Source: Acidobacteriota bacterium (GTDB lineage Bacteria > Acidobacteriota > UBA890 > WLXD01). From it: 64,000 bases of DNA. The stretch lies in NCBI GenBank assembly GCA_965205505.1, contig CBDBHB010000009.1:928001-992000 (forward strand). Direction: 5' to 3'. Shown here in pieces: positions 14,069 through 47,942 of the stretch. Under the pieces are notes generated by a model that worked only from the letters and a program-made list of their open reading frames with translations, made no database searches and had not been told where the DNA came from. Made by a program: the position numbers and the translations under genes. Position 1 is the stretch's first letter; every line of letters begins with the position of its first letter.

Positions 14069-14217
14069 GGCGGTGGCGCCGGCATCGGTACGCACCTCGG
14101 CCAGGGTGGAGCTCCTGAGCTCGATCTGCTTGGTAGTCAACGCGTCATCGTTTGTGTTGTTCGAGCGCCGTGCTGGCGAGCCTGGCTACGGTGCGTACCG
14201 ATGCCGGCGCCACCGCC
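14069..14217. repeat. Perfect 28-bp inverted repeat with 93-bp spacer
   Basis: ggcggtggcgccggcatcggtacgcacc (14069-14096) and its exact reverse complement (14190-14217). Confidence 0.9.
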
Positions 14218-14366
14218 GCGAACGTTCGAGGGATCTCCGGCGCGCGACCGGCATTCTCCGTCGTCGGGGAGCTCGGAGCGCGTGTTTCCTGGGGCGCTGA
14301 CGGAGCAGCTTGACGCCCCTCCTCGGTGTCGTCGAATGGCTCAGAGCCGCGCGCGCCTATCGGTGC

Positions 14367-14407
14367 CGGAGGGAGCAGAGGCATGCCTCTGCTGCCATCG
14401 CCCTCCG
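14367..14407. repeat. 20-bp palindrome (REP-like or terminator hairpin) just downstream of pckG
   Basis: agcagaggcatgcctctgct 14374-14393, flanked by cggaggg/ccctccg. Confidence 0.65.
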
Positions 14408-14410
14408 AGG

Positions 14411-16228
14411 TCAGACGGTCGCCGTCTTCTCCTGCGCTGCTTCCTGGAGCCGCGACCGAAGGGCGTCTAGCTGCTCCGTCAACGCCGCCGGGAGCCGGTC
14501 GGCGAACTGCTCGTAGTGCTGCTCGATCAGCGGGATCTCCTGCTGCCAGCCGTCGATGTCGACGCGCAGCAGTTCCTCGAGATCGTTCGGGGCGAGGTCC
14601 ATCCCGCTCACGTCCAAGGCGTCGACCGTCGGCAATCGGCCGATGGGTGAGTCGATGGCTTCGCTGACTCCGGCGCAGCGCTCGAATACCCATCCGAGGA
14701 CGCGCGAGTTATCGCCGAAACCCGGCCAAATGAAGCGGCGATCGGCATCACGGCGAAACCAGTTTACATAGAAGATCTTCGGTAGCTTGGCCGGGTCAGT
14801 CTTCGCCCCGAGACGCAGCCAATGGGCGAAATAATCGCCCATGTGGTAGCCGCAGAAGGGCAACATGGCCATCGGGTCGCGACGTACTTCGCCAACTTGC
14901 CCGGCGGCGGCGGCGGTCTTCGCCGACGACATGATCGAGCCAAGAAACGTGCCGTGTTCCCAGTCGAAGGCCTCGGTGACCAATGGGATGACGGTTTCGC
15001 GGCGACCACCGAACAGGAAGGCGCTGATCGGCACCCCCGCCGGGTCCTCCCATTCCGGCGCGATCACCGGGCACTGGTGGGCAGGGGCAGTGAACCGGGC
15101 GTTCGGATGTGCCGCCGGCCGATCCGAGTCGGGTGTCCAGGGTCGTCGCAGCCAGTCGACGAGCTCGGCGGGCGCTTCTGGCGTCATGCCCTCCCACCAC
15201 GCGTCGCCGTCCGGGGTGAGGGCGCAGTTCGTGAAGATCGAGTTGCCTGCCATCGACAGCATGGCGTTGGGGTTCGATTGGTCGCTGGTACCCGGCGCGA
15301 CGCCGAAGAACCCGGCCTCGGGGTTGATCGCGTAAAGTCGCCCGTCTTCGCCGAATTTCATCCAGGCGATGTCGTCACCGATTGTCTCTACCTTCCAGCC
15401 CGGCAGCGTCGGGTTCATCATCGCCAGGTTGGTCTTGCCGCAGGCGCTGGGAAACGCGGCGGTGATGTATTTCACGTCGCCGGCGGGCGAGGTGAGCTTC
15501 AGGATCAGCATGTGCTCGGCGAGCCAGCCGTTGTCGCGCGCCTGTACCGAGGCGATGCGCAGCGCATGGCACTTCTTGCCGAGCAGCGCGTTGCCACCAT
15601 AGCCGGAGCCGTACGACATGATCTCGCGGCTCTCGGGAAAGTGGGCGATGTACTTGTTGTCGGCGTCGCAAGGCCAGGGCAGGTCCGGCTGCCGGTCGCT
15701 GGTGAGTGGGTAGCCGACCGAGTGCAGCCCGCGCACGAAGCTGTCGTCGTTGCCGAGCACCTCGAGCACGGGGGTTCCCACCCGAGCCATGATGTGCAAG
15801 TTGCAAACCACGTACGGCGAGTCGCTGATCTCGATGCCGATCTTGGAGATGGGGCTGCCGATCGGCCCCATCGAATAGGGGATCACGTACATCGCGCGTC
15901 CGCGCATGCAACCTTCGTAGAGGGCGCGCAGCGTAACGCGCATGCCGTCCGGATCGGTCCAGTTGTTGGTCGGGCCGGCATCTGTTTCCGACTCCGAACA
16001 TATGAACGTTCGATCCTCTACGCGCGCCACATCGGCGGGATCCGATCGGCACAGGAAACTGTTCGGGCGTTTCTCCGGATCGAGTCGGATGTATGTACCC
16101 GAATCGACCATGAGCTGACTGAGGCGGTCGTATTCCTCGGGCGAGCCATCACACCAGACAACGGTGTCCGGTTGGCACAGCTGTTGGACCTCGTCGACCC
16201 AGGCGTTGAGCTTGTCGTTGGTGGCCAC
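14411..16228 (-). CDS. pckG: Phosphoenolpyruvate carboxykinase (GTP)
   Basis: [42 protein letters not shown]; GTG start with GAGG SD. Confidence 0.97.
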
Positions 16229-33856: not shown

Positions 33857-35571
33857 GCTGCGGATCTTCACGAGGGCCCGAGATAATTCGAGGTCGCCAG
33901 CAGTGCGACGTATGCATCGTCGGCTCCGGGGCCGGGGGCGGCATGACCGCGAAGGTGCTCGCGGAGGCCGGCGCCCGGGTTGTGATGCTCGAGGCCGGGG
34001 GGGCGTGGGACGCGGCCTCCGACTCCGCCATGCTCACCTGGCCGTATGAGTCGCCGCGACGCGGTGCCGCGACGCCGGAGCGCCAGTTCGGCGAGTTCAA
34101 CGCCGGGCTCGGCGGTTGGTCACTCGATGGCGAACCGTACACTGTCGCCGACGGCGAGGCGTTCGACTGGTTCCGGGTTCGCATGCTCGGCGGCCGGACC
34201 AACCACTGGGGTCGGATCTCGCTGCGCTTCGGCCCCGACGACTTCAAAGCACGGAGCCTCGACGGCCTCGGCGACGACTGGCCGATCTCCTACGACGACA
34301 TCGCCCCCTACTACGACAAGGTCGACCGGTTGGTCGGCTTGTTTGGGTCGCTCGAGGGCCTGCATAACGATCCCGACGGAATCTTCCAGCCACCGCCCGA
34401 GCCCCGCTGCTGGGAGAAGCTGATCCAGCGGGCCTGTGTCGGGCTGTCGATTCCCTGCATCCCGGCACGGATGTCGATTCTCACGGAGCCACACAACGGC
34501 CGTCCCGCCTGCCACTACTGCGGCCAGTGTGGTCGCGGCTGCGGCACTCATTCCAACTTCTCCACACCCGCTGTGCTGTTGCCTCCTGCCCTGGCTACTG
34601 GGCGGCTCGAGGTGGTGACCCAGGCTATGGCGCGAGAGGTAACCGTCGACGGACAGGGCCATGCGAACGGCGTCGTCTATATCGACAAGCGCACTGGCCG
34701 TGACGAACACGTGCGCGCCCGCGTCGTGGTGCTGGCGGCGAGCGCCTGCGAGTCGGCACGGCTGCTGTTGAACTCCAGGTCCGGCTTGTTTCCCGACGGG
34801 GTGGCGAACTCCAGCGGTGTGGTGGGCAAGTACCTGACCGATACCACCGGCACCAGCGTAGTGGGCTTCGTCCCGACGCTGGCCGCGGGGGTACCACACA
34901 ACGAGGACGGTGCCGGCGGCGCCCATCTGTACATGCCGTGGTGGCTCGATAATCGACAGCTCGACTTCCCGCGCGGCTACCACATCGAGATTGGGGGTGG
35001 CCGGGACCTGCCATCGTACGGGGTCATGGGCGGCATTCATCGCTATCCGGGCGGCGGTGGGTACGGGCACGATCTCAAGAACTTGTACCGTGAGTACTAC
35101 GGCAGCACCGTCAGGTTCGCGGGCCGCGGCGAGATGGTTCCGAACCGCAATTGCTACTGCGAGATCGACCCCGAGGCGGTCGATCGCTGGGGGATTCCGG
35201 TGCTGAAGTTCCACTTCGAATGGAGCGATCGCGAGCTTCGGCAAGTGCGGCACATGCAGGAGACCTTCCGCGAGATCATCGATGCCATGGGCGGTACGCC
35301 GCTGACGCCGATGCCGGATGAGTCGGAGGGGTACGGCATCGAGCCCGGGGGACGCATCATCCACGAGCTCGGGGTGACGCGCATGGGCGAGTCCCCGAGT
35401 AGCTCCGCGCTCAACTCCTTTTGCCAGGCGCACGACGCGCGCAACGTATTCGTCGCCGATGGCGGGCCGTTCGTGTCGCAGCCCGACAAGAACCCCACGT
35501 GGACGATCCTGGCGCTGGCCATGCGGACCAGCGAGTACATTGCCGATCAGCTGCGCCAGGGCAACCTTTGA
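33853..35571 (+). CDS. GMC family oxidoreductase
   Basis: VGSGAGGG, LGGRTNHW, CHYCGQC..GC, IHELG, KNPTWT. Confidence 0.92.
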   Translation: MSCGSSRGPEIIRGRQQCDVCIVGSGAGGGMTAKVLAEAGARVVMLEAGGAWDAASDSAMLTWPYESPRRGAATPERQFGEFNAGLGGWSLDGEPYTVADGEAFDWFRVRMLGGRTNHWGRISLRFGPDDFKARSLDGLGDDWPISYDDIAPYYDKVDRLVGLFGSLEGLHNDPDGIFQPPPEPRCWEKLIQRACVGLSIPCIPARMSILTEPHNGRPACHYCGQCGRGCGTHSNFSTPAVLLPPALATGRLEVVTQAMAREVTVDGQGHANGVVYIDKRTGRDEHVRARVVVLAASACESARLLLNSRSGLFPDGVANSSGVVGKYLTDTTGTSVVGFVPTLAAGVPHNEDGAGGAHLYMPWWLDNRQLDFPRGYHIEIGGGRDLPSYGVMGGIHRYPGGGGYGHDLKNLYREYYGSTVRFAGRGEMVPNRNCYCEIDPEAVDRWGIPVLKFHFEWSDRELRQVRHMQETFREIIDAMGGTPLTPMPDESEGYGIEPGGRIIHELGVTRMGESPSSSALNSFCQAHDARNVFVADGGPFVSQPDKNPTWTILALAMRTSEYIADQLRQGNL

Positions 35572-36230
35572 TGAGCAAACGTCCTTCCCACCCGTCCCGC
35601 CGGCCGGTGCCGTCGGCAGGTCTCGACACGCCGACGGATCTCAGTCGACGCCAGGCGCTCGGTCTGCTCGCCTCGGCTACCGTGGGCTTTGCCTGGTCAC
35701 CCGCTCAGGCGGTGCTGGCGCACGAGCGCGCCACCGTGGCACTGCAACATGCCGCTGCGGTCGGTAGCTCGTACGCGCCGCGCTTCTTCACGATGCACGA
35801 GCTGGCCACGGTTCGACAGCTCGCCGACATGATCATCCCGGCCGATGAGCGCTCGGGAAGCGCTACCGACGCCGGCGTGCCCGAGTTCATGGACTTCATG
35901 ATGATCGACCAACCGGAGCGTCAGGTGGCTCTGCGCGGCGGGCTGACGTGGATCGATCACCAAGCACAGGAGCGCTTCGGAGAACGCTTCCTCGACTGTA
36001 GCTCGACGCAGCGCGAGCAGCTCCTCGACGACATAGCGTGGCCGGAGCGCGCCCCCCGAGAGCTTCGCCACGGGGTCGCGTTCTTCAACGCGTTTCGTGA
36101 TCTCACGGCGACCGGCTTCTGGACCAGCAAGATGGGCGTCGAAGACCTCCAGTTCAAAGGCAACGAGTACGTCTCACGCTGGAGCGGGTGTCCGCCGGAA
36201 CAACTTCGCAAGCTCGGGCTGATCGACTAG
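35571..36230 (+). CDS. Gluconate 2-dehydrogenase subunit 3 family Tat protein
   Basis: SRRQAL, IIPADERSGSA, GFWTSKMG. Confidence 0.88.
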   Translation: MSKRPSHPSRRPVPSAGLDTPTDLSRRQALGLLASATVGFAWSPAQAVLAHERATVALQHAAAVGSSYAPRFFTMHELATVRQLADMIIPADERSGSATDAGVPEFMDFMMIDQPERQVALRGGLTWIDHQAQERFGERFLDCSSTQREQLLDDIAWPERAPRELRHGVAFFNAFRDLTATGFWTSKMGVEDLQFKGNEYVSRWSGCPPEQLRKLGLID

Positions 36231-36420
36231 TGGCCTGTAACAGATGATCGTTGCAGATCGCCCGCAACTGCCCATCTGTCCGGAGGATGGCGGCGAAATC
36301 GGCCCGTCTGCGGCGTTGCTCCTCCTCGAAGATGGGCAAACATCGTCTCGTCGTCACGCCTGGCATCCGGACCCGTTTCGCCACCACGATACGCAACGAT
36401 CATCTGCTACAGGCCACTAG
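36227..36420. mobile_element. MITE-like element 1 (CTAG-flanked, 24-bp TIR with 1 mismatch)
   Basis: ctag-tggcctgtaacagatgatcgttgc ... gcaacgatcatctgctacaggcca-ctag; left CTAG contains the upstream stop codon. Confidence 0.85.
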
Positions 36421-36541
36421 CGGCGTCCTTCAGCGGCGCGGAATGGTTAGGATGGATACGCTTGACACCCGATTCGGGACGCGCCGGCACTGATCCAGTG
36501 CCTATCCTGGAGTCTTCTGGCGCCCCGTTCGGGAGGTACTC

Positions 36542-38017
36542 ATGAGACTCCGAGCCGCCGTTGTCACTATTGCGCTGTTGACGCTGATCGCCGCGCCGTC
36601 GGCAGCGCAGTCCGCAGACCCCAGCTTGTTGCTCTTCTTCCAGGCCGCCTCGCCGGACAAGGGCACTTCGGAAAATGCGCTCGACGAAATCGGCAAGCAC
36701 TGGAAGGATGGCTACACGGCGCTTCTGCTCGACTGGCTACGTTTCCTGCCGTCGGGGGAGGCCGGCGACAACACCTCTGGTGGTGCCAACGGCGGGCAGG
36801 GTTCCGACGACCCCGAATCCCAAGGTGATGGAGCCGGGAGCTCACCGGCCTCCGACCCCCGCGTGCAGACGCGCGAGCGCATCCTCGACTTCCTCGAGGC
36901 GCAGACCGGGCAGGAGTACGGCGACGATCTCGACCAATGGCGCCACTGGATGTGGGCGCAACCCTACAACACCCATGCTCAGATCAGTAGGTTCAAGGCC
37001 AACGTCTATGGCAGCTTCGATCAGGCATTCCGCAAGTTCTTCCGAGGTACGTCAGCGGTGCGCATCGACGAGATCGACTGGGGCGGCGTGCGGGTTGGCG
37101 GTGGGGGCATTCCGGCGCTCGACCACCCGCCGACGGTTTCCGTAGCCGAAGCCTCCTATCTCGACGACGACAACATCGTGTTCGGGCTATACATCAACGG
37201 CCATGCCCGCGCCTATCCCAAGCGCATTCTCGCCTGGCACGAGCTCGCCTGGGACACCATCGGTGACCTGGAGATCACCTTGGTGTACTGCACCCTCTGC
37301 GGGGTAGTGATCCCCTACAAGAGTGAGGTGGACGGACAGGTGGTCAAGCTCGACACTTCCGGACTGCTGTTTCGCTCCAACAAGCTCCTGTTCGACGAGC
37401 CGTCGTCGACCCTATGGTCGAGCATCACTGGCGAGCCGCTGGTGGGTGACATGGTGGGAAGCGGCGTGCGCCTCAGTCCCCTGCCGGTGGTGACGACAAC
37501 TTGGCGTGACTGGCGCACCGCGAATCCGCATACGAGCGTCTTGTCATTGGACACTGGCTTCGAGCGTGACTACGGCGAGGGTGTGGCCTACGCGGACTAC
37601 TTCGCTACCGACGAGCTGATGTTCGAGGTGCCGAATCGAGACTCGAGGCTCAAGAACAAGGACGAAGTGCTGGCTATACGCTTTCCCGGCGGCGACGGAG
37701 ATCAGGCGCTGGCGATCTCGGTGGCGTTCCTGCAGCGCAACCGTCTATTCAAGATCGACTTTGCCGGGCGCGACCTGGTGGTGGTCACCAGTGAGGATGG
37801 CGCCAACCGGCTCTATGCGTCGCCCTCCGCGAAGCTGGTGCGCTTCGTCGATGGCAACCGCATCGAGGACGAACACGGCAACCTGTGGGAAGCTCGCGAG
37901 GATCAACTGGTGCCGTTGGCGACCCCCGTGGAAGGGCTGCCGCGCCTGAATGCCTTCCGGGCGTTCTGGTTCGGGTGGTATGCCCAGTATCCAGAAACGG
38001 AGCTGATCGTAAGCTAG
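36542..38017 (+). CDS. DUF3179 domain-containing secreted protein
   Basis: IDWGGV..GIPALD, RAYP.RILAWHE, YCTLC, SGLL..SNK, FWFGW. Confidence 0.88.
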   Translation: MRLRAAVVTIALLTLIAAPSAAQSADPSLLLFFQAASPDKGTSENALDEIGKHWKDGYTALLLDWLRFLPSGEAGDNTSGGANGGQGSDDPESQGDGAGSSPASDPRVQTRERILDFLEAQTGQEYGDDLDQWRHWMWAQPYNTHAQISRFKANVYGSFDQAFRKFFRGTSAVRIDEIDWGGVRVGGGGIPALDHPPTVSVAEASYLDDDNIVFGLYINGHARAYPKRILAWHELAWDTIGDLEITLVYCTLCGVVIPYKSEVDGQVVKLDTSGLLFRSNKLLFDEPSSTLWSSITGEPLVGDMVGSGVRLSPLPVVTTTWRDWRTANPHTSVLSLDTGFERDYGEGVAYADYFATDELMFEVPNRDSRLKNKDEVLAIRFPGGDGDQALAISVAFLQRNRLFKIDFAGRDLVVVTSEDGANRLYASPSAKLVRFVDGNRIEDEHGNLWEAREDQLVPLATPVEGLPRLNAFRAFWFGWYAQYPETELIVS

Positions 38018-38188
38018 TGCTCCTGATCATAAGTACGGCTCCTGCCCTCCGGGTGGCCGCGGGACCGGCCACCTTGGGCGTCGCGGCGCCTCGACGATAC
38101 ACCCAGCATCGCCCTCGTCGCCGCTCCTACAATTCGCCCCGGTCGCGCGCGCCACAAACGTCACCGTACTTATGATCAGGAGCACTAG
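38014..38188. mobile_element. MITE-like element 2 (CTAG-flanked, perfect 21-bp TIR)
   Basis: ctag-tgctcctgatcataagtacgg ... ccgtacttatgatcaggagca-ctag; left CTAG contains the DUF3179 stop codon. Confidence 0.88.
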
Positions 38189-38201
38189 TGTCTATGGTTT
38201 G

Positions 38202-38528
38202 CTAGTCGGCCAGCGGTAGGCGGTGGCGGCGCCAACGCGACATGTGGCCGCGCAGCAGGCGAACATCTACGCCACGGCGCTCGAGTAGCTCGCGCGCTAG
38301 CCAGGCGCGCGGCCCCAGCTCACAGTACGCAACGATCTCTGGCGCGTTTCTGAGTGACTCGGCAGTCGACGCCAGAAGCGCCCTCCAGAGCGGCGTACGC
38401 CGGGCTCCAGGCAGGTGGCCCCGGCGATATTCCCAACGAGATCGCACGTCGAGAATGACCGGTTCCCCTTGTCCGCCAAGGCGCTCGAGTAACTCCTCTG
38501 GGTCGATACCGGCCGGTGAATTGCGCAT
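38202..38528 (-). CDS. Rhodanese-like domain protein
   Basis: ILDVRS..EY..GHLPGA, active-site CELGPR, L.GHM..W. Confidence 0.85.
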   Translation of the reverse strand: MRNSPAGIDPEELLERLGGQGEPVILDVRSRWEYRRGHLPGARRTPLWRALLASTAESLRNAPEIVAYCELGPRAWLARELLERRGVDVRLLRGHMSRWRRHRLPLAD

Positions 38529-38655
38529 GACGATACGGTCCCGGCTGACGTGATAACTTCTGCCTCCGACCTTGGCTGGCGCCGAGTAGGAGTGCGGTCG
38601 AGGGCCCCACTATATCCGCATCTTCCGCGGCTGGGGTGGCTGGAGAAGCGAGCCG

Positions 38656-39633
38656 GTGGAGATCCTCGACGACATCCTGGGAGCGCTTGGCGACACACCA
38701 TTGGTGCGCCTGCGGCGTTTCTGGCCGCACGGTGCCGAGCTCGTCGCCAAGATCGAATCGTTCAACCCGGGATCGAGCGTCAAGGACCGCATCGGGCTGC
38801 CGTTGATCGCCGCCGGTGAAGAGTCCGGAGAGCTGCAGCCGGGCGGCACAATCGTGGAGCCGACCTCCGGGAATACCGGCCTGGGCTTGGCCATGGCCGC
38901 TATTCTCAAGGGCTACCGGATGGTCTGTACCGCGGCCGACAAGATTCCCAAGGAAAAGGTGGCGCTGCTGCAGGCCTTCGGTGTGGAGGTAATTCTCTGC
39001 CCTACCGAGGTCGAGGCGGACGATCCGCGCTCCTACTACAAGGTCGCCGAGCGACTGCGCGACGACGAAGGCGCTTATCTTCCCTACCAGTATTACAACC
39101 AAGCGAACCCGCAGGCGCACTACCTCACTACTGGCCCGGAAATCTGGCGTCAGACCGAGGGGCGCATCACCCACTGGGTCACTGGAATGGGGACCGGCGG
39201 CACGATCAGCGGCACCGCCAAGTACTTGAAGGAGCAGAACCCCGATGTTCGGGTCGTCGGCGTCGACACGGTGGGCTCGATTTACGCCTACTACAAAGAA
39301 CATGGAAAGACGCCACCGCAGGAGCAGATCCACCAGTACCTGATCGACGGAATCGGTGAGGACTTCATGCCCGAAACTGTGTGGTGGGACTACATCGACG
39401 AGGTGATCACGGTGGATGATCCGGCGGCCTATCGCGCCGTCCTCGAGTTGGCCCGCAGCGAGGCCATCTTCACCGGTTCGTCAGGGGCGGCGGCGGTTGT
39501 CGGGGCGCGCCGCGTCGCACGCAGCGCCGCGGATGATGCGCTGGTGGTGACCCTGCTTCCCGACTCCGGTGAGCGTTACCTGTCGAAGCTCAACGAGACG
39601 TGGATGCGCGAGCACGGGCTGCTGGACGACTGA
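38656..39633 (+). CDS. PLP-dependent cysteine synthase / cystathionine beta-synthase family protein
   Basis: NPGSSVKDR (PLP Lys), PTSGNTG, GMGTGGT, PDSGERYLS. Confidence 0.92.
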   Translation: MEILDDILGALGDTPLVRLRRFWPHGAELVAKIESFNPGSSVKDRIGLPLIAAGEESGELQPGGTIVEPTSGNTGLGLAMAAILKGYRMVCTAADKIPKEKVALLQAFGVEVILCPTEVEADDPRSYYKVAERLRDDEGAYLPYQYYNQANPQAHYLTTGPEIWRQTEGRITHWVTGMGTGGTISGTAKYLKEQNPDVRVVGVDTVGSIYAYYKEHGKTPPQEQIHQYLIDGIGEDFMPETVWWDYIDEVITVDDPAAYRAVLELARSEAIFTGSSGAAAVVGARRVARSAADDALVVTLLPDSGERYLSKLNETWMREHGLLDD

Positions 39634-39676
39634 GCCGCCTTGCGTTTGACCCGGACTTGCCGTAACCAGGCCGGCG

Positions 39677-39699
39677 ACACTTCTACCACGGCCTGTTAG
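39677..39699 (-). repeat. Solo IS/MITE-like terminal sequence
   Basis: acacttctaccacggcctgttag, 20/23 identical to 29851-29873. Confidence 0.55.
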
Positions 39700-39710
39700 G
39701 AAAGGTGCTC

Positions 39711-41003
39711 ATGCCGAGCGGCTTCAGTGGGAGCCTGGCAGCGACCCTATTCGCCGGAGGCGTGCCTGCGGCGCTGGTCTTCGTTGCGTTGCTCACGCTA
39801 CGCTGCCGCTATCCGCTGATGCGGGCACTCGGGCTGCCGTCATCCCTGCTCGCCTTTGCGCTCGGCGTCGCCGTTGCCAACGTGTTGGGCCTTGGCGACA
39901 TGGACCGGGGAGGCGGCGTGCTGGTGGCAACTGTCTGGTTCTTCGTCATCGTGGTGGTGATTCGCGGCGCCACCTACTTCGGCTACGAGGTTCTGCTCAA
40001 GCGTCAATGGGACATCGAGGTGCCGCCGCTGTTGCCGCGCGTCACCCGTTTCTTCATCTACGCCGTATCGGGTGTGATGATCGTTTCGGTGGCGTTTCCT
40101 AATGACAATCTCGGGCCGTTGCTTGCTACCAGCGCGGTTACATCGTTGGTGTTGGGTCTTGCGCTGCAACCGATCCTGACGAACTTCTTCGCCGGTGTGG
40201 TGATCGCGCTCGAACGTCCCTTCCGTATCAACGACTGGATTCAGGTTGGCCCGCATGAGGGGCGGGTAACGCAGATCACCTGGCGGACGACCTCGATCCG
40301 TACGCGCCAGAACGATACGGTTATTTTCCCCAACGCCAACATGGCGCGGGAGACCCTCACCAACTACCTGTATCCGCACCCGCTGCACATGTCGAGAATC
40401 TATGTCGGGGCGCATTTCTCGACGCCGCCACACAAGGTCAAGGCGACGATGCTCGCAGCCGCCAACCAGGTCGAAGGGGTGTTGGATCGGCCGAGCGCCG
40501 AAGTCTACCTATCCAAATTCGACGAAAGCTCGATCACCTACGAGCTACGCGCCTGGGTCGACGACATGGGCCCATTGCGGCGCATCGAAAGCGCGCTACG
40601 CACCCAAATTTGGGAGCAGTTCCGGCGCAACGATATCGTCATCCCGTTCCCGATCCGCACGCTCGAGATCGCGCCGCGGGGTAGCGCGACGCGTGAGCCG
40701 CGCACGCCGCCGCCAGCCAGACTGGTGGTAAGCGAGGGGCCTGGTCGCGGCGACGCGCTCGAGCTTGCCGACGGCGAGGTCGTGGTCGGCCGCGACCCTG
40801 AGTGTGACCTGGTCATATCGGACCCCGCAGCCAGCAAGAGACACTTGAGCATCGTGTGGGAAGATGAGGCGTTCCACGTTCGAGACCTCGATAGCACCCA
40901 CGGCACCCGGCTCAACGGTGAGCCTGTGGACACCGCCCCGTTGAGTGATTTCGACAAGCTGCAGATCGGCGCAGCAACGCTAGTGATCGAGATCGATGAC
41001 TGA
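39711..41003 (+). CDS. MscS family mechanosensitive channel fused to C-terminal FHA domain
   Basis: GLALQPILTNFFAG, ERPFRINDWI, ITWRTT, IPFPIR (MscS); VGRDPECDL..ASKRH..DLDSTHGT.LNG (FHA). Confidence 0.88.
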   Translation: MPSGFSGSLAATLFAGGVPAALVFVALLTLRCRYPLMRALGLPSSLLAFALGVAVANVLGLGDMDRGGGVLVATVWFFVIVVVIRGATYFGYEVLLKRQWDIEVPPLLPRVTRFFIYAVSGVMIVSVAFPNDNLGPLLATSAVTSLVLGLALQPILTNFFAGVVIALERPFRINDWIQVGPHEGRVTQITWRTTSIRTRQNDTVIFPNANMARETLTNYLYPHPLHMSRIYVGAHFSTPPHKVKATMLAAANQVEGVLDRPSAEVYLSKFDESSITYELRAWVDDMGPLRRIESALRTQIWEQFRRNDIVIPFPIRTLEIAPRGSATREPRTPPPARLVVSEGPGRGDALELADGEVVVGRDPECDLVISDPAASKRHLSIVWEDEAFHVRDLDSTHGTRLNGEPVDTAPLSDFDKLQIGAATLVIEIDD

Positions 41004-41913
41004 GCTACCCGAGCAGATTGGTGACTATCGCGTCGAGGCGCGGCTGGACAAAGCCGGGCACAACGGGGTCTACAAAGCGGTCGGCGCGGGTACGCAGGCG
41101 TTGGCCATCAAGCTGTATCCCACCGGGGAGTCCGATGTCCTGCGCGCTCGACGCCTGGAGATCCTGGCGGCCACGAGCGAGCTCGATCAAGAGAACGTCG
41201 CGCGCGTGCTCGACAGCGGCGAGCACGAGGGCCGCGTGTACGCGGTGATGGAATTCGTTCAGGGGTCATCGCTCCGCAAGGTATTGACGCACCGTCGGCT
41301 CGATACGCGCGACGTCATCGAGGTGCTGCGCGGCACCGCCAAAGCACTCGGTCATGCGTACGGCAAAGGCCTGCCTTGCGAGGGCGTCGATTCGGACCGC
41401 ATCCTCGTCCGTGGTGATGGGCACACTGTGAAGGTCATCGACGTCGGCATGCCGATGGTACCGATGGGCATGGATTCGGGCTCTACGGCGACGCTGCATT
41501 CGCTCGGCGCGGTGCGCTACCTGGCGCCCGAGCGTATGGCCCGCCCCGACGATGCCCCGAGCCAAGGCGCGCTGGTGTATTCGTTAGGCGTCGTCGGTTA
41601 CGAGCTGTTGACGGGAACCCTGCCGGTGGGCGGCTTCCGGATTCCGAGCCAGGTGCGCGGCGAGGTGCCGCCGGAGATCGATCCGCTGATTCTTCGGTGT
41701 CTCGCCGAGGACCCGCAGGAGCGCTTCGCCGACCCGCGCGCCCTGGTTGCGGCGCTGGACGATCTCGTATCGCGTGTGCCCGCGCTACAGGCAAGGATCG
41801 GCGATGGAGCTGCTGCACGCGTGCAAGCCACCGCGCGGAACCGCAAGGTACTCTTTGCCGGCGGCGTTGTCGCCGCGTTGGCGATCCTGGTGCTGGCGAT
41901 GCGGGGTTGCTGA
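40996..41913 (+). CDS. Ser/Thr kinase-like protein, probable pseudokinase, with C-terminal membrane anchor
   Basis: LAIK, VMEFV.G, YLAPE, YSLG present; HRDxKxxN replaced by CEGVDSDR; DFG is DVG. Confidence 0.82.
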   Translation: MTELPEQIGDYRVEARLDKAGHNGVYKAVGAGTQALAIKLYPTGESDVLRARRLEILAATSELDQENVARVLDSGEHEGRVYAVMEFVQGSSLRKVLTHRRLDTRDVIEVLRGTAKALGHAYGKGLPCEGVDSDRILVRGDGHTVKVIDVGMPMVPMGMDSGSTATLHSLGAVRYLAPERMARPDDAPSQGALVYSLGVVGYELLTGTLPVGGFRIPSQVRGEVPPEIDPLILRCLAEDPQERFADPRALVAALDDLVSRVPALQARIGDGAAARVQATARNRKVLFAGGVVAALAILVLAMRGC

Positions 41914-41948
41914 TCCGGCGACGTTGAGCCTGTGAGAGAGCCCTCGGC

Positions 41949-44900
41949 TCAGCCCGCGGCGGGATCTCGACGGCCGACGACCACGTCCGCACTCTGCTCG
42001 CCGAGATCGGCCTCGCGACGGTTCCACCAGTTGCTCAACCGCTCCGGGAGTTGCTGAGCGTCGTCGACGATCATGTAGCTGCACGGCACCAGGGCGAGGA
42101 TGACGAAGGTGGCGAAGAGCACGCCGAACGCTAGTGATACGGCCATCGGGATCAGGAACTGAGCTTGCAAGCTCTTCTCCAGGATCATCGGCAACAGCCC
42201 TGCGAAGGTCGTGACCGAGGTCAAAAGGATGGGCCTGAACCGCGCTCGTCCGGCCTCGAGCACCGCGCTCCGAACATTCTCGGTGGTCTCGAGTAGCCGA
42301 TTGACGTAGTCAACCAGGATCAAGCTGTCGTTGACCACCACACCGGCGAGGGCCACGACGCCGAACATCGACAGGATTGTCAGGTCGAGGCCCATGATGA
42401 TGTGGCCCCACACCGCGCCCACGAGGCCGAACGGGATGGCGGACATGATGATCAGGGGCTGCACGTAGGAGCGCAGCGGGATTGCCAGCAGTCCGAAGAT
42501 GGCGATGAGCGCCAGCGAGAAGCCGCGTACCAAGCCTCCCGTGGTTTCACGCTGTTGTGCGGCTTGGCCTTCGAACGAGAAACGGACATCGGGGATCGCA
42601 GCGGCGATCTGCGGCAGCACCGTATCGGCCAAGTCGGCGTTGATGTTTCCCGGGGTAGCGACGGCGCGGTTTACCGATGCGGTAACGCTCACCGCCCGAC
42701 TTCGATCCACCCGTTCGATGGTCGAGTAACCACGACCCGGCTCGACCGTCGCCACCTGGGCGAACGGCACCTCCGCGCCACCCGGCGTGCCGATTCGCAT
42801 CGCCTCGAGATCGCCGATGGAGCGCCGTTGTCGCTCCGGGTACCGCACCATCACTCGCACGTCGTCCCGGCCTCGTTGGATACGCTGGGCCTCCTCGCCG
42901 TAGAACGCCTGTCGCACTTGGCGGCCGAGGTCGGACAGGGTCAGACCGAGGACCTCGGCTTGCGGCTTGATGTCGAGCTTTAGCTCGCGCTTGCCTTCCA
43001 GGAACGTATCGCTGATCCCGTAAACCCCGTCGTAGCCCTCGAGACGATCCTTGAGCATGTCCGCAGCAGCGGTGAGCGTGTCGAGATCGCGGCCGGTGAA
43101 CTGAACGTCGATGTCGTCTCCGGCCGAGAACAACGAGGCCGTGACGTTGACTCGCACGGCGTCAGGGATCGTCCCGGTCAGATCACGCCAGCGGTTCGCG
43201 ACCCACTCGCTGGAGACCGCATTGCGGCTCTCAGCGGGGGTGAGCTCCACGGTCACCTCGGCAAGGTGGGTCGTCGAGCCGCCAATCTCCAAGTCGCCGA
43301 ACCCTGAGCGCTGGGCTGCTTGCATGGGCTGGGCCCCGATCGCCGCGAACGTATGCACGAAGACGTCGACGCCGAACTCGTCGATGATCTCCTGCCGCAG
43401 GCGCTCGGAGCTGTCCTCGATGTGCCGTACGGTCAACGAGGTGACCTCCGCTGGCGTGCCCTGCGGCATCGTCAGCGACACGATGACGAAGTCGGCTTCG
43501 ATATCAGGCATGAAGATGAACCGCACGAAGCCTGCGTTGACCAGGCCCAGGGTAACGAGCAATGTCGCTACACCGACCGCGACGGTGAGATAGCGCCAGC
43601 GCAAGCCGATCTGCAAGGCGGGTTCGTAGACGCTGTCGATGAACCAGTGCAACCCGGCCGTGATCTTGCGCTGGAGCCGGAACCACAGACCGCGCTCGTT
43701 AGCCGTGTGGCGCCGTCGATACGACAGGTGCGTCGGCAGGACAAACAGGGATTCCACCAATGAGAACGCCAAGCACGCGATCACGATGAGCGGCGCGGTG
43801 GACATGATCTTGCCGATCACGCCGGGCACGCCAAGCAGCGGGGCGAACGCAGCCATGCTGGTGAGAATGGCGAAAACTACTGGCTTCGACACCTCGCGGG
43901 CACCCTCGATCGCGGCGCGCAGCGGATCGTCGTGCCGTTCCTGGTGCGTGTAGATGTTCTCGCCCACCACGATGGCGTCGTCGACGACCATGCCGAGTAC
44001 CAGGATGAAGGCGAATAGCGACATCAGGTTCACCGAGACATCCATCGCCGGCATCAACCAGATCGCACCGAGGAAGCTGACCGGGATGCCCAGGCTCACC
44101 CAGAACGCCAACCGCAAGCGCAGGAACAGAGCGAGAGACAGGAACACGAGTGCGAACCCGACGCGTCCGTTTCGAAGCAGCATGTCGAGGCGATCTCGCA
44201 GCACCCGCGACTGATCCTGCCAGGTGGTCAGCGTGATTCCCTCCGGCACCCAGAGGCGCGCGCTCTCGACGTAAGACTTTCACGAGCATCGCCGGTTTGC
44301 CATCGAAGCGTGAGATCTGGTCGGTGTCGGCGAAGGCGTCCACCACGGTGGCGACATCGCCTAGCTGCAGGTGGGTTCCATCCGGCCGCGTCAGCAGCAC
44401 CAGCCTGGTGAACTGATCCCCCGTATATGCCTGGCCCATCGTGCGCAGCAGGATCTCGCCGCCGGCGGTCTTGACCGAGCCCCCGGGCAGGTCGATCGAA
44501 GAGCGTCGCACCGCGTTGGCGATGAAGTCGAAGGTGATGCCGTGCCGGCGCAGGGAATCTTCGGAGACTTCGATCGTCACCTCGTAGGGGCGCGCGTTGG
44601 CAACCTCCACCTGAGTGATCTCGGGCAACGCTGCAATCTCGTCGCGCACGCGTTCGGCCAGGTGCTTGAGCGAGAGCTCGTCGGTGTCGCCGAAGATCGC
44701 CACGTCGACCACCTGCCGACGGTTCGTGAGCTCGCGAATAATCGGCTTCTCGGTTTCCTGTGGGAAGGTCTCGATGGCATCGACGCTGGTCTTGATATCG
44801 TCGAGAACCTTGCGCGCGTCGGCGTCGATCTCGAGCTCGATCATGACCGTGCCGATGCCCTCGGCGGCCGTGGAGGTCAGCTTCTTGATGCCGTCGACGC

Positions 44901-45120
44901 CCTGGACCGCCTCCTCGATGCGTACGTTGACTCCCTGTTCGACCTCTTCGGGTGCGGCCCCCAGATACGGCACGGTTACCTGGATGAGGTCGAGGGCGAA
45001 CTCGGGGAACACCTCCTGCGGGACATTGCTGACGGTCATCAGACCCGCGCCGAGCACGAACGCCATGAGCAGGTTGGCAGCGACGCGATTGCGAGCGAAC
45101 CAGCCGATCGCGCCGTTCAT
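41949..45120 (-). CDS. RND (AcrB/AcrD/AcrF) efflux permease, interrupted near 44275
   Basis: N-part 45120-~44275 and C-part in another frame; GMVVDDAIVVGEN, RFRPILLTS; may be a pseudogene or an assembly error. Confidence 0.88.
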
Positions 45121-46207
45121 CGGCCTAGCTGGCCGGCGCCCGTCTGTTCGGTGGCCCGCGAATCGACACGCACCACCATGCCGTCGGTCACCGCATCCAA
45201 CGCCGACAGCACCACCTGCTCGCCAGCATGCAGCCCGGATCGAACCACGAGAGTGTCACGCGTGGCACGCAGGATCTTGATTTCGCGGAAGCGCAGGCGC
45301 TGTTGCTCATCGACGACGAGCACGCGGCCGTCAACACGCACCGCTGCGCGAGGTAGCAGCACGACATCGCTGGCGATCGCACCCTCGATCTCGGCATGCA
45401 CGTACATGCCCACCGCGAGCGGCGGGCGCTGTGGATCAGCGCCGCGCCCGTACGGATTCCGCACCTGGGCAACGGCATGGACCATGCGGCTCGATGGGTC
45501 GATCTCGCCTTCCGTTCGTACCAGGCGCCCCTGCCACTCGTGTGTCTGGCCGGCGAACTCGGCGCGCACCGTCACGCGCGGCCCGGCGCGCTGAGACTCC
45601 CCTCGATATACCAGTGGCAGCTCCGCCAGGAAGGCGAGCTCGCCGTCGGGCAACGGTAGCCGGATCTCGGCGAAGTCGATAGCGTAGATCGATCCCACGG
45701 CTGTCCCGGCGGCAACGAACTGGCCGACGTCGACTGTCTTTTCGCGCACGCGGCCGGCGTAAGGCGCGCGTAGCTCTGTGCGTTCGAGGTTGCGTTCCGC
45801 TTGCCCCAGGTTGGCTTCGGCCGCCGCTAACGCGGCGCGGGCATTCTCCAGCTGCGGCACGTGGGCGGTCAATGCCGACGCGGTGCCGTTGCCCAGCTGT
45901 TGCCATTCGCGCACCGCGATCTCGGCCTCTGCCTGCGCTTGCGCCTGGCGCAGCCCGGAGGCTGCAACCTCGGCGCGAGCGCGAATGCGAGCTTGCTCGT
46001 AGTCGTGCGCATCGATGCGCAACAGCGGCGCGCCGGCCTCGAAAAAGCCGCCGGATACGAAATCAGGCGATACCCATACCACTTGTCCAGAGACCTCGGG
46101 CACAACGCGGCTCTCGGTCCGCGGGCGCACGCGGCCGCCGCCCCGGCGATGGCGAGCACGAGGATCGGCAGTGTGATCTTCAGCACGGTGGCGACCTTGC
46201 GGCTCAT
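45117..46207 (-). CDS. RND periplasmic adaptor (MFP), frameshifted/deleted near 46132
   Basis: TM leader MSRKVATVLKITLPILVLAIAG in one frame; VRPRTE..EVSGQV, LRAPYAG in another. Confidence 0.85.
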
Positions 46208-46209
46208 CG

Positions 46210-46488
46210 CTAGTGTCCTGTAACAGAGGTTCGTTGCATATTGCTGGGTCGAGATGGGGGCAAGCTCAAGGCGCGATGAGGATGGCGATGCGGTGCCCAT
46301 CGTCGACGAATCGCAACGCTGAGATTGCCCCCATATCGACCCAGCCCTCCGGGTGGCCGCGGGACTGGCCACCTCCGGCGTCGGCCCTCCTCTGCGATAC
46401 CCTCAGCATCGCCGTCGTCGAGCCTCCTTGGTTTCGACTCAGTCGCGCGCGCCACAATATGCAACGAACCTCTGTTACAGGACATTAG
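46210..46488. mobile_element. MITE-like element 3 (perfect 30-bp TIR, ctag/ttag flanks, two internal hairpin modules)
   Basis: tgtcctgtaacagaggttcgttgcatattg 46214-46243 and its exact reverse complement 46455-46484. Confidence 0.9.
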
Positions 46489-47942
46489 CTCTCCGAAGGG
46501 AACTCGGTCGAGGTGGTTGTGGTCTCGGCATAGCCGCGGTCGACGTGGAATCCACCGCCCAGTGCCAGGTACAGATCAACACGGTTGTCGAGGCGCTGGC
46601 GGCGCGCGGCGAGCAACGCGCTCTCGGCGTCGAAGGTGCGGCGTTGCGCCTCGAGCACGGGGACATAGCCTTCCAGACCGTTTCGGTAGCGCTCGTTGGC
46701 GAGACGCTCGGCGGCGCCGGATTGCTCCGACGCAACTTCTAGCTGGCCCACCTGGTCGGCTAGCAGCGTCTCCGCTGCGAGCGTGGATTCGACCTCGGCA
46801 TAGGCGAGCAGCGCTGTACCCACATAGGCGGCGGCAGCCTCGTCGATGCCGGCCTGTGCCACATCGACTCCAGCGCGCAGCCGGCCGCCCTGGAGCAGTG
46901 GCGCCACGAGGTTGCCAACCAGGCTCCATACCGAAAAATCACCCTGCACCAATTTACCCAGCTGGTTGGTCGATGTCCCACCGGACGCAGTCAGGCTCAG
47001 TCGCGGATACAGCGCAGCGCGTGCTCCGAGGAGCCGCTGGTCAGCTACTACGAGCCGGCGCTCGGCGGCAGCCAGGTCGGGCCTGCGCGCAACCAGATCC
47101 GCCGGCAGCCCAGACGGCACCTGGGCAGGCGCGTCGATGAGCGCTGCCGGGAACTCGAACTCGCCGCCGGGATAGATCCCGAGCAGCACTTGGAGCTGGC
47201 GGCCGGTAGCGTCCAGTTGCTGGTGCCGAGCCAGCAACGTGGCGCCGGCGCCGGCGGCCTGCGCCATCGCCAGCCGTAGATCAAGCGGCGGGCGAACGCC
47301 GCGTTCGAACCGCGCGCGTACCTGTTCGACCGAGCGTGTGAAGCTGAGTACGGTACGCGTTGCGAGATCGACCTGCTGTTGGGCCTCGGCCACCGCGAAC
47401 CAGGCCTTGGCGGTCTGTGCGGCGATCGAGAGTAGAGCGCCAGCGTAGTCGGCTTCGCTAGCCTGGTAGGTGGCGAGGCCCTCCCGGGCCTGGGCGCCGA
47501 GGCGGCCCCAGAGGTCGACCTCCCACGACAGGTCGAGCGACACCCCGTAGTTGGTCGATGTGGTGCTGAGAACGCGGTTGTCGCTGCCGGGAATCGGGAA
47601 GCCGACGAAGTTCTGCTTGCGGCGCGTAGCCAGGGCGCTGGCTCCGAGCTGCGGGCGCAGATCAGCGTCGGCGATTCGCGCGGTGGCCTCGGCGCCCGCC
47701 ATGCGTGCGGCAGCGGCGAGGACATCGGTGTTGTGCTGAAGCGATCGTTCCACCGCCGCCGTCAGGCCGCGTTCGCTAAAGTCCAACCACCAGCTGGCAC
47801 TGACGTCGATGGGCTCAGCAGGCGCCCGGTCGCCGAACGCCGCGGGCAACGGGAGAGCCGTCGTTGGCTTGGCGGCGTTGGGGGTGGAGACGCAGCCGAC
47901 GCCAGCGAGGAGGACGACAGCGGCGCTGGCGGCTCGATTCAT
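46485..47942 (-). CDS. Outer membrane efflux lipoprotein (NodT/OprM/TolC family)
   Basis: GVGC lipobox, SWEVDLWGR, RRPDLAAAE, LYLALGGG. Confidence 0.92.
   Translation of the reverse strand: MNRAASAAVVLLAGVGCVSTPNAAKPTTALPLPAAFGDRAPAEPIDVSASWWLDFSERGLTAAVERSLQHNTDVLAAAARMAGAEATARIADADLRPQLGASALATRRKQNFVGFPIPGSDNRVLSTTSTNYGVSLDLSWEVDLWGRLGAQAREGLATYQASEADYAGALLSIAAQTAKAWFAVAEAQQQVDLATRTVLSFTRSVEQVRARFERGVRPPLDLRLAMAQAAGAGATLLARHQQLDATGRQLQVLLGIYPGGEFEFPAALIDAPAQVPSGLPADLVARRPDLAAAERRLVVADQRLLGARAALYPRLSLTASGGTSTNQLGKLVQGDFSVWSLVGNLVAPLLQGGRLRAGVDVAQAGIDEAAAAYVGTALLAYAEVESTLAAETLLADQVGQLEVASEQSGAAERLANERYRNGLEGYVPVLEAQRRTFDAESALLAARRQRLDNRVDLYLALGGGFHVDRGYAETTTTSTEFPSES

Follow-up and report, generated by a model that had tools for sequence, protein, structure and literature searches.

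The ERIC (IRU) elements of Enterobacteria and the Correia (NEMIS, CREE) elements of Neisseria are described, in the sections that deal with them of a 2024 review of prokaryotic MITEs (transposable elements of miniature size with inverted repeats), as short non-coding sequences with inverted ends that lie at the ends of genes, are co-transcribed and form long hairpins; RNase III cuts Correia transcripts at their paired ends, and ERIC alters mRNA decay (PMC10969869). Within a 64-kb stretch of contig CBDBHB010000009.1 from an Acidobacteriota bacterium (the window; its genome, 5.98 Mb and 96% complete, is termed G000) there are three elements of this general form, el1, el2 and el3, containing between them four copies of a hairpin. 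The hairpin is the conserved core of a superfamily of CTAG-inserting MITEs in soil Acidobacteria. Its strand-specific fold, which is of RNA type, is conserved apart from the element ends in a wide range of shells and taxa, and the copies resident in the genome show constraint on it.

Like ERIC and Correia, the element is short and non-coding, with inverted ends and a position at gene ends. The descriptions of those elements set them apart from the present one, which has an apical module of ~50 nt with triple tandem G·A, a G·U pair and freely covarying stems. This module is kept over more than 20 ends and several phyla, and changes more slowly than the ends. RUP of Streptococcus pneumoniae is a MITE mobilised by IS630. 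Our elements resemble RUP and other IS630-mobilised MITEs in their insertion at TA within CTAG, and one kind of end (S4, below) is held in common with an IS630-family insertion sequence (IS) of the same genome. Unlike RUP, other shells carry ends of IS1182/IS5-type IS (18 of 20 nt, with an IS of genome G007).

The CGTC-tagged REPs and the NTS-SRM sequences are, in the parts of the sources that give their structures, simple hairpins of 20-40 nt with an 8-9-bp stem and a 4-5-nt loop (PMC3733652, PMC11893778). As far as those accounts extend, REPs, CGTC-REPs and SRMs are strand-specific hairpins at gene ends, often in inverted pairs, as here, and the complement of our hairpin starts GCGTC or GCGTT, similar to the CGTC tag; they differ in being much shorter and lacking transposon ends. 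Their RAYT and Ssn enzymes were not found in G000, where PF01797 (Y1/RAYT) gave no match and PF01541, for small GIY-YIG/Ssn proteins, gave only a 684-aa frame and one weak match. An assignment to REP/REPIN-RAYT was rejected on the absence of the GTAG tag and of a PF01797 match. One to CGTC-REP/SRM-Ssn was rejected because the hairpin is ~50 nt long with internal loops, small GIY-YIG proteins were not found, and no gene family was recurrently bracketed by hairpins in 24 intervals. Ends of the IS200/IS605 type were discounted because each end of an element has its hairpin on the strand opposite to that of the other, and no Y1 gene was found in G000. Tandem G·A/A·G pairs stacked on helices are also a feature of kink-turns and box C/D RNA. 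Here, however, there is no 3-nt bulge, the internal loops being symmetric (5x5 or 6x5), and there was no match to the L7Ae family (PF01248) in the 96%-complete G000, so that an L7Ae-bound kink-turn was rejected too.

Among the papers listed by full-text literature searches, none describes the element, or MITEs in Vicinamibacterales. Those parts of the 2024 MITE review that were consulted make no mention of Acidobacteria, CTAG or IS630 (PMC10969869).

Structure and strand of the hairpin

The elements and their hairpins are positioned as follows, with the matches of R1, a covariance model built from the four window copies (alignment A1).

36227-36420: el1, single-module MITE of 194 bp; CTAG at both ends, S3-type ends (CTAGTGGCCTGTAACAG...), 34-nt arms 91% complementary
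36313-36361, minus strand: el1 hairpin; R1 match 36307-36367, minus strand, 66.2 bits
38014-38188: el2, single-module MITE of 175 bp, CTAG-bounded; S2-type ends (CTAGTGCTCCTGATCATAAGTACGG...), inverted ends perfect over 25 nt, 34 nt by reading
38039-38077, minus strand: 3′ arm of the el2 module, pairing by reading with 38129-38163 to give a ~20-bp basal stem beneath the hairpin
38078-38128, minus strand: el2 hairpin; R1 match 38072-38134, minus strand, 79.1 bits
38129-38163, minus strand: 5′ arm of the el2 module
46210-46489: el3, two-module MITE of 280 bp, CTAG-bounded; S3-variant inverted ends of 34-35 nt, 97% complementary
46243-46345, plus strand: el3a module with its own arms, 46243-46268 pairing with 46320-46345 (inverted repeat)
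46268-46319, plus strand: el3a hairpin; R1 match 46263-46325, plus strand, 77.2 bits; central loop pair G-C, not C-G
46378-46428, minus strand: el3b hairpin; R1 match 46372-46434, minus strand, 77.0 bits

The original prediction claimed four hairpin copies, and all four are where it placed them; searched over the whole 64-kb window, R1 recovers precisely these at E<=1e-4. It could not assign the hairpin to a named Rfam family, and this agrees with a scan of positions 35500-47500 against Rfam 15, in which five matches (E 1.5-4.7) all fell far below the gathering score. The sole one overlapping a hairpin is el3a against the archaeal C/D RNA sR46 (18 bits against a gathering score of 50, E 1.8).

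Read on the purine-rich strand, the consensus is a rod. From the base upward, an arm of ~20 bp of free but complementary sequence leads through a small internal loop to a G-C pair. Above this, tandem G·A/A·G alternates with G·A/C·A, followed by a 5-bp stem of free sequence and then the internal loop GAsGA/GAsGA, in which two tandem G·A/A·G pairs flank one Watson-Crick pair. The rod ends in a 7-bp apical stem, whose second pair is a conserved G·U, and a loop of 6-8 nt of free sequence. The el2 variant is the most frequent in the genome, with 23 identical copies. In el1 there is an additional tandem G·A in the outer stem, and the apical stem GACGAUG/CAUCUUC has a single C·U mismatch. For the complete el3 transcript the predicted fold is a three-way junction (-167.2 kcal/mol, z -11.06), in which two arms meet the 34-bp end stem.

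Covariation was measured in an alignment of 92 matches from G000 and other genomes, of which 86 are distinct (A3). Standard pairs occupy 92.6% of the cells against 78.9% in shuffles, and the covariation score is 0.342 against 0.119; none of 500 shuffles reached either value. Both sides change at 9 of the 13 pairs, and in the outer stem at all five. When the 3′ partners were slid as a control, pairing fell to 21-62%. RNAalifold, run without a supplied structure, returned the same helices together with three covarying basal pairs and a G-C pair. The compensatory changes first noted in the outer stems and in the arms (GACCG/CGGTC against GACTG/CAGTC) are thus real and hold in far larger samples (170 aligned rows from G000 and the 86 distinct sequences); in the window they are seen as GACCGG/CCGGTC in el2 and GACTG/CAGTC in el3b. 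The exchange of the central internal-loop pair, also claimed from the four copies, is likewise found in the larger set, with 65 C-G, 17 G-C and one A-U among the 86 sequences.

The positions that are not Watson-Crick paired are constrained as well, with G·A or A·G at six places. These pairs are present in 152-162 of the 170 rows at 16.47, 17.46 and 9.54, and in 125-142 at 19.44 and 20.43. One non-Watson-Crick position undergoes a coupled switch, being C·A in 53 of the 86 sequences, A·G in 29 and otherwise in four (84 against 75 in G000). In sheared geometry C·A and A·G would be isosteric. The outer stem of some subfamilies holds a tandem G·A of its own (13.50 as G·A and 14.49 as A·G, each in 36 rows).

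Several observations assign the fold to one strand. The 2210 stem cells of the 170 rows comprise 1723 Watson-Crick pairs, 213 G·U, 24 A·C, 97 G·A, 130 others and 23 that are gapped, and the 9 to 1 excess of G·U over A·C shows that it is the purine-rich strand that folds. At the second apical pair 68 of the 86 sequences have G·U and 10 have A-U. This G·U survives compensated rewriting of the apical stem, to GGCCUUGG/CCAAGGUC in G059, a genome of another family in the phylum, and to GGCGACC/GGUCGUC in G001. The ATG that other copies carry is absent from the same rewritten copies, and its loss while stem and G·U stay removes explanations based on a start codon. In all four window copies the minimum-energy RNA fold of the purine-rich strand is the consensus (-24.1 to -28.1 kcal/mol, z -1.05 to -2.31), while the complement folds worse (-17.0 to -21.8 kcal/mol, z +0.90 to -0.92). 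Under DNA parameters just one of the four has the consensus as its minimum.

Distribution and constraint

A covariance model was built and the genome searched with it, a check suggested at the outset, and the covariation in the larger alignment exceeded that of every shuffle. R1 finds at least 150 matches in G000, all significant. A search with nhmmer using the four window sequences gives 290, of which 281 are near full length, with 178 distinct sequences and 170 distinct aligned rows. They fall at 185 loci, 91 with a single hairpin, 86 with two and eight with more. Matches are found in 25 of 61 genomes of the phylum (G000 included), namely in 8 of the 10 remaining members of the family, in 11 of 15 from the sister family and in 5 of 35 outside the order, and there are hundreds of further copies in the host order beyond G000.

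An exact-pattern scan taking one genome per species found at least 113 stretches, 80 of which were scored with the model. Twenty-nine loci (36 matches) pass, and the remaining 51 stretches are chance matches to the pattern. Most passing records are titled Acidobacteriota, Thermoanaerobaculia among them. The titles of six name other groups, namely Bradymonadales (two contigs), 'delta proteobacterium' (a chromosome of 7.5 Mb), Polyangia (one contig), Chlamydiota (a contig of 99 kb) and Spirochaetaceae (a contig of 3 kb), the short contigs from metagenome-assembled genomes being possibly mis-binned. None of 22 pattern matches in viral contigs passes R1, and el3 has no blastn match in plasmids.

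We have sought evidence of constraint by counting substitutions private to a single copy in 11 subfamilies, each of at least six copies with at least 90% identity. The 30 conserved core positions have 21 in 6601 (0.32%), compared with 1.0% in the outer stem, 1.45% in the loop and 0.87-1.25% in the flanks. The core is lower in 11 of the 11 subfamilies, and the four bases taken singly all show the same (odds ratio 0.31, Fisher p 2.6e-9). Measured from the terminus in 232 half-elements, the rate is 1.26% at end positions 5-19, 1.04% at 20-34, 0.91-1.17% in the arms, 0.93% in the hairpin outside the core and 0.36% in the core, which differs from the two parts of the end with p 4e-6 and 1e-4. A family of seven in genome G003, whose loci were chosen as top R1 scores, gives 4/420 in the core, 16/420 in the ends and 29/651 in the arms. 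On the same branches there is no depletion in the ends, on which a DDE transposase depends, and the depletion of the core is therefore not simply a transposition filter. With the same hairpin under more than 20 unrelated ends and a core holding some three times fewer private substitutions, selection on the structure apart from the terminal inverted repeats, as the original prediction proposed, is borne out. No shared orthologous copies for an in-place rate test were found on comparing the G003 sites with G000, or the window elements with G004 and G001.

Architecture, ends and mobility of the elements

Of the 290 hairpins, 232 have a YTAG at a distance of 52-58 nt upstream, on the same strand as the hairpin and in inward orientation, and from this position it follows that each module reads inward from the nearer end. 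One or two modules lie between the 34-nt inverted ends. The shell geometry is uniform: a 34-nt end, an arm of ~20 nt, the hairpin starting 53-54 nt inside the terminal CTAG, and 279 nt in total. Bounded elements could be drawn at 93 of the 185 loci, with CTAG at both ends in 82 of the 93 and sizes of 270-289 bp (68) or 150-199 bp (17). Two-module elements have their hairpins on opposite strands (+/-) in 53 of 56 bounded cases, and the two modules are of different subfamilies. In G000 there are at least five kinds of end.

S1: CTAGCAGGCCGTGG
S2: CTAGTGCTCCTGAT
S3: CTAGTGGCCTGTAA
S4: CTAGTGTCCTGAGT
S5: CTAGCAGGGTGCTG

In other genomes CTAG is found at 52-54 nt for 24 of 34 matches, with 18 more distinct end sequences, and there are further ones in G059 and G043. 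More than 20 different 34-nt end sequences in all thus carry the hairpin. The first 17 nt of S4 are shared with the right end of an IS630-family IS in G000 (loci L023/L024), and S5 has its 18 of 20 nt in common with an IS1182-like IS of G007 that bears a DDE_Tnp_1_6 domain. No full IS partner was found in G000 for S1, S2 or S3. Three candidate parents or sources were rejected. A 2022-bp end pair at C9:1325510 is a MITE with an inserted IS110-family IS, a 3256-bp end pair in C6 consists of two MITEs around ordinary genes, and the only DDE_Tnp_1 match in G000, which is IS5-like, lies in a low-GC island (C8:558500-562500) without MITE ends.

It had been suggested that the hairpin is cargo carried by different MITE shells. 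The different shells are confirmed; capture by separate shells is not established, the geometry being identical in every one. Since this is so, a single ancestral architecture whose ends were replaced or diverged fits at least as well as repeated capture.

The elements are mobile. At locus L164 the G003 element has a CTAG on either side and G000 has just one CTAG, that is, an empty site and a target duplication; other G003 insertion sites have remnants of different shells in G000. El1, el2 and el3 are missing at the orthologous places in G004, the closest relative (flanks 89-94% identical), and in G001. Inverted ends, the lack of a consistent open reading frame (ORF), many copies, presence/absence polymorphism and ends in common with autonomous IS together identify the elements as MITEs. 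The contigs of four sequencing runs break at the repeats, and gave neither coverage spanning the elements nor a joint corresponding to an empty site. All four also break at ~42437-42888 and 43980-44273 of the window, where word depth is up 5-10 fold and R1 has no match, which suggests more repeats. At 14069-14217 and 14288-14491 of the window there are two inverted-repeat structures of another sequence type (37-nt arms, 92%, and 34-nt arms, 85%).

Insertion has provided genes with their stop codons. The TAG stop of the gene at 35421-36230 (Gluconate_2-dh3 family), upstream of el1, comes from the left CTAG of el1, and that of the DUF3179 gene at 36542-38017 from the left CTAG of el2. El3 lies in an efflux operon on the minus strand, with an OEP gene (stop 46485-46487) on one side and a gene for an HlyD-type adaptor on the other. 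Among 31 loci with both flanks callable, 16 lie between convergent genes, 13 between tandem and two between divergent genes.

G004 and G001 lack the whole block of el1, the DUF3179 gene and el2 at the orthologous locus, its flanks there being separated by 35 and 14 nt. A DUF3179 gene of 83% identity stands at another place in G004, again with an el1-like element preceding it, and the gene may have moved between two unlike MITEs. DUF3179 as a partner of the hairpin was rejected, as only two of eight loci lie within 1.5 kb of one, against a background of 9%, and its N-terminus is hydrophobic and by eye resembles a signal peptide.

Other insertions involve the elements themselves. One subfamily has CTAG in its apical loop (GCCCTAGCC), and at C8:1245040-1245401 and C8:1310065-1310686 of G000 other elements are inserted exactly there, up to four deep. 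An IS110-family IS (DEDD_Tnp_IS110 and Transposase_20; L001, 1028-2074, minus strand) targets the MITE terminus, for example at C6:104735, C7:281708 and C9:1831674. Its 24-nt end occurs 19 times in G000, and TGGCCTG, the start of the S3 and S4 MITE ends, comes immediately after it in 17 of the 19. Segments at C2:4475-5928 and C9:3136373-3137827 that include a 497-aa ORF are 99% identical and flanked by hairpin elements, through either segmental duplication or an assembly duplicate. In G007 (5.1 Mb, of the same family as G000) there has been a massive expansion of IS, with at least 109 matches of an IS1182-like IS having CTAG-flanked ends and 43 IS630 matches.

Readings of the conserved core

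Protein binding or processing on the one hand, and a site for mobilisation on the other, had been put forward as roles for the hairpin. These are still the two leading explanations, and the tests lean toward the first without deciding. The one we favour, tentatively and with a likelihood that falls somewhat short of even, is that the hairpin is an RNA-type module recognised by a protein, with an effect in cis on those transcripts that run into the element. Elements on TAG stop codons at gene ends would be transcribed by read-through, because they sit on the stops and have no promoter of their own (promoter scans found none that was sigma-70-like). With modules that are directed inward, a transcript would meet a sense hairpin first whichever side it came from, ~55 nt past the stop codon. 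A putative host protein would recognise the G·A loops and the G·U pair, and this might set the 3′ end of the upstream mRNA or shield it, or lead to processing of the transcript. Insertion would thereby be tolerated where the element is located.

A number of observations weigh against such a cis-acting RNA. No partner protein was found in G000 among the RAYT, Ssn and L7Ae families searched. There are no intrinsic terminator sites in 36100-38400 or 46000-46700; the U-tract is absent, and the hairpin is therefore not a canonical terminator. At single-hairpin loci the hairpin is sense to an incoming gene in 34 cases and antisense in 47 (p 0.18), or 18 and 31 where just one gene is incoming, and this lack of a sense preference counts against a simple role at 3′ ends. 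The sense strand of single-hairpin loci on contigs C9, C8 and C7 of G000 is the leading strand in 24 cases and the opposite in 51 (n=75, p 0.0024), a replication-strand bias that points to an effect at the level of DNA. Flanking genes are weakly co-oriented with replication (65 against 54), and gene orientation does not explain the bias; it may be that modules with their stable strand on the lagging-strand template are lost more readily than others. The fixed distance of 53-54 nt, over many ends and phyla, is what a constraint from a transposition complex would give. As to the substitution test, the copies were found through the hairpin itself, a bias that is minor for high-scoring families and real for the low-scoring module 3, and a local difference in mutation rate or a mutational bias could play a part in the depletion of the core.

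The alternative that the hairpin is a mobilisation module, needed as single-stranded DNA, a cruciform or a three-way junction for the element to move or multiply, is unlikely on balance but a serious contender. The structure might bring together the two ends of a very short element, or be bound by transposase or a host factor at a fixed distance from the cut. The constant geometry over more than 20 ends and several phyla is explained better in this way than by a cis-acting RNA, and inward orientation at both ends is like that of subterminal binding sites. The replication-strand bias is also in its favour. G000, where IS630 genes are present, has families of many identical copies, while G003 and G012, in neither of which DDE_3 or PF13751 was found, show only spread-out scores. 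Copy numbers in the latter two are nevertheless high (111 and 37 matches). PF13751 was not found in G000 either, and DDE_3 was found in 11 of the 25 hairpin-bearing genomes compared with 6 of the 36 without, a tally over related genomes that are not independent. Against mobilisation, the hairpin lies inside the IS at none of 38 loci (20 IS1182-like and 18 IS630), three merely having an adjoining MITE, so that these transposases dispense with it in the case of their own elements. DDE enzymes work on double-stranded ends, where G·A, G·U and isosteric changes would be meaningless; the ends are free of constraint on the very branches where the core has it; no single-strand enzyme specific to the hairpin (Y1/RAYT or small GIY-YIG/Ssn) was found in G000; and DNA parameters give the consensus in just one copy of four. 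The same 38 loci bear on the decidedly improbable idea of a relic, in which the Shine-Dalgarno sequence and ATG of a parental IS have become a stem with no present function, the MITEs having arisen from two left ends. AAGGAG and GAGGA motifs, an ATG ~78 nt from the end, where a transposase usually starts, and the inward orientation would suit a relic. Yet G059 and G001 have lost the ATG through compensated changes, a separate parent would be required for each of at least 11 subfamilies whose stems are compensated, and the core is constrained at present.

Conserved unpaired purines next to freely covarying helices are the pattern of catalytic as well as protein-binding RNAs, and the product could be the Y-shaped transcript or an excised hairpin, acting in trans as a protein sponge or decoy, or as a small ribozyme. 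The predicted 34-bp end stem would suit double-strand RNases, releasing the interior, and there are several GGA motifs on the sense strand. We consider this improbable: no promoter was found and no ribozyme or sponge in Rfam matched, the GGA motifs lie within stems and internal loops and are absent in some variants (AAGGCG, GAGGC), and the constraint is seen in individual copies, as would be unnecessary for a highly redundant sponge. It is very improbable that the hairpin has no function and its copies are alike through recent bursts and horizontal spread of one young element, as the 23 identical copies of one variant and the absence of all three window elements from the orthologous sites of G004 might suggest. 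The covariation counts contradict this, 9 of 13 pairs having compensatory changes on both sides, in families of the phylum and outside it; divergence has made the ends and arms, though not the core, unrecognisable, and within families the core changes three times more slowly than the flanks. A mini-gene, in which the conserved ATG opens a small ORF bridging the element, is hardly credible. The ATG frames of el1 and el2 do end at the terminal TAG (38 and 31 codons), and the ATG is in frame with it in 91 of 147 cases, but only 42 of the 147 ORFs end there and 38 stop after 2-3 codons. Differences in loop length shift the frame over the conserved 3′ half, so that there is no conserved peptide, and in G059 and G001 the ATG is replaced.

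A more speculative proposal, and a rather doubtful one, is that the 279-nt Y-shaped element is a selfish 'gene' at the level of RNA, whose triple tandem-G·A hairpins bind a host protein or are catalytic, and which persists by swapping its DNA ends to ride whichever CTAG-targeting transposase of IS630 or IS1182 type is available. If true, this would explain why fold and dimensions are conserved across phyla when the ends are not.

The hairpin is a well-supported candidate for a new family of RNA motifs, for which alignment A3 and model R1 can be used. MITEs are usually regarded as junk between transposase-binding ends. Here the reverse is found: the ends are interchangeable and evolve freely, and it is the folded core that is conserved, with RNA-type signatures in its conserved G·U, its sheared G·A tandems and a C·A/A·G exchange that looks isosteric. 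If the core serves mobility, it would represent a structural requirement for moving very short DDE elements. If it acts on host transcripts, then hundreds of gene ends in abundant soil bacteria would share a single regulatory or processing signal that is read by a protein.

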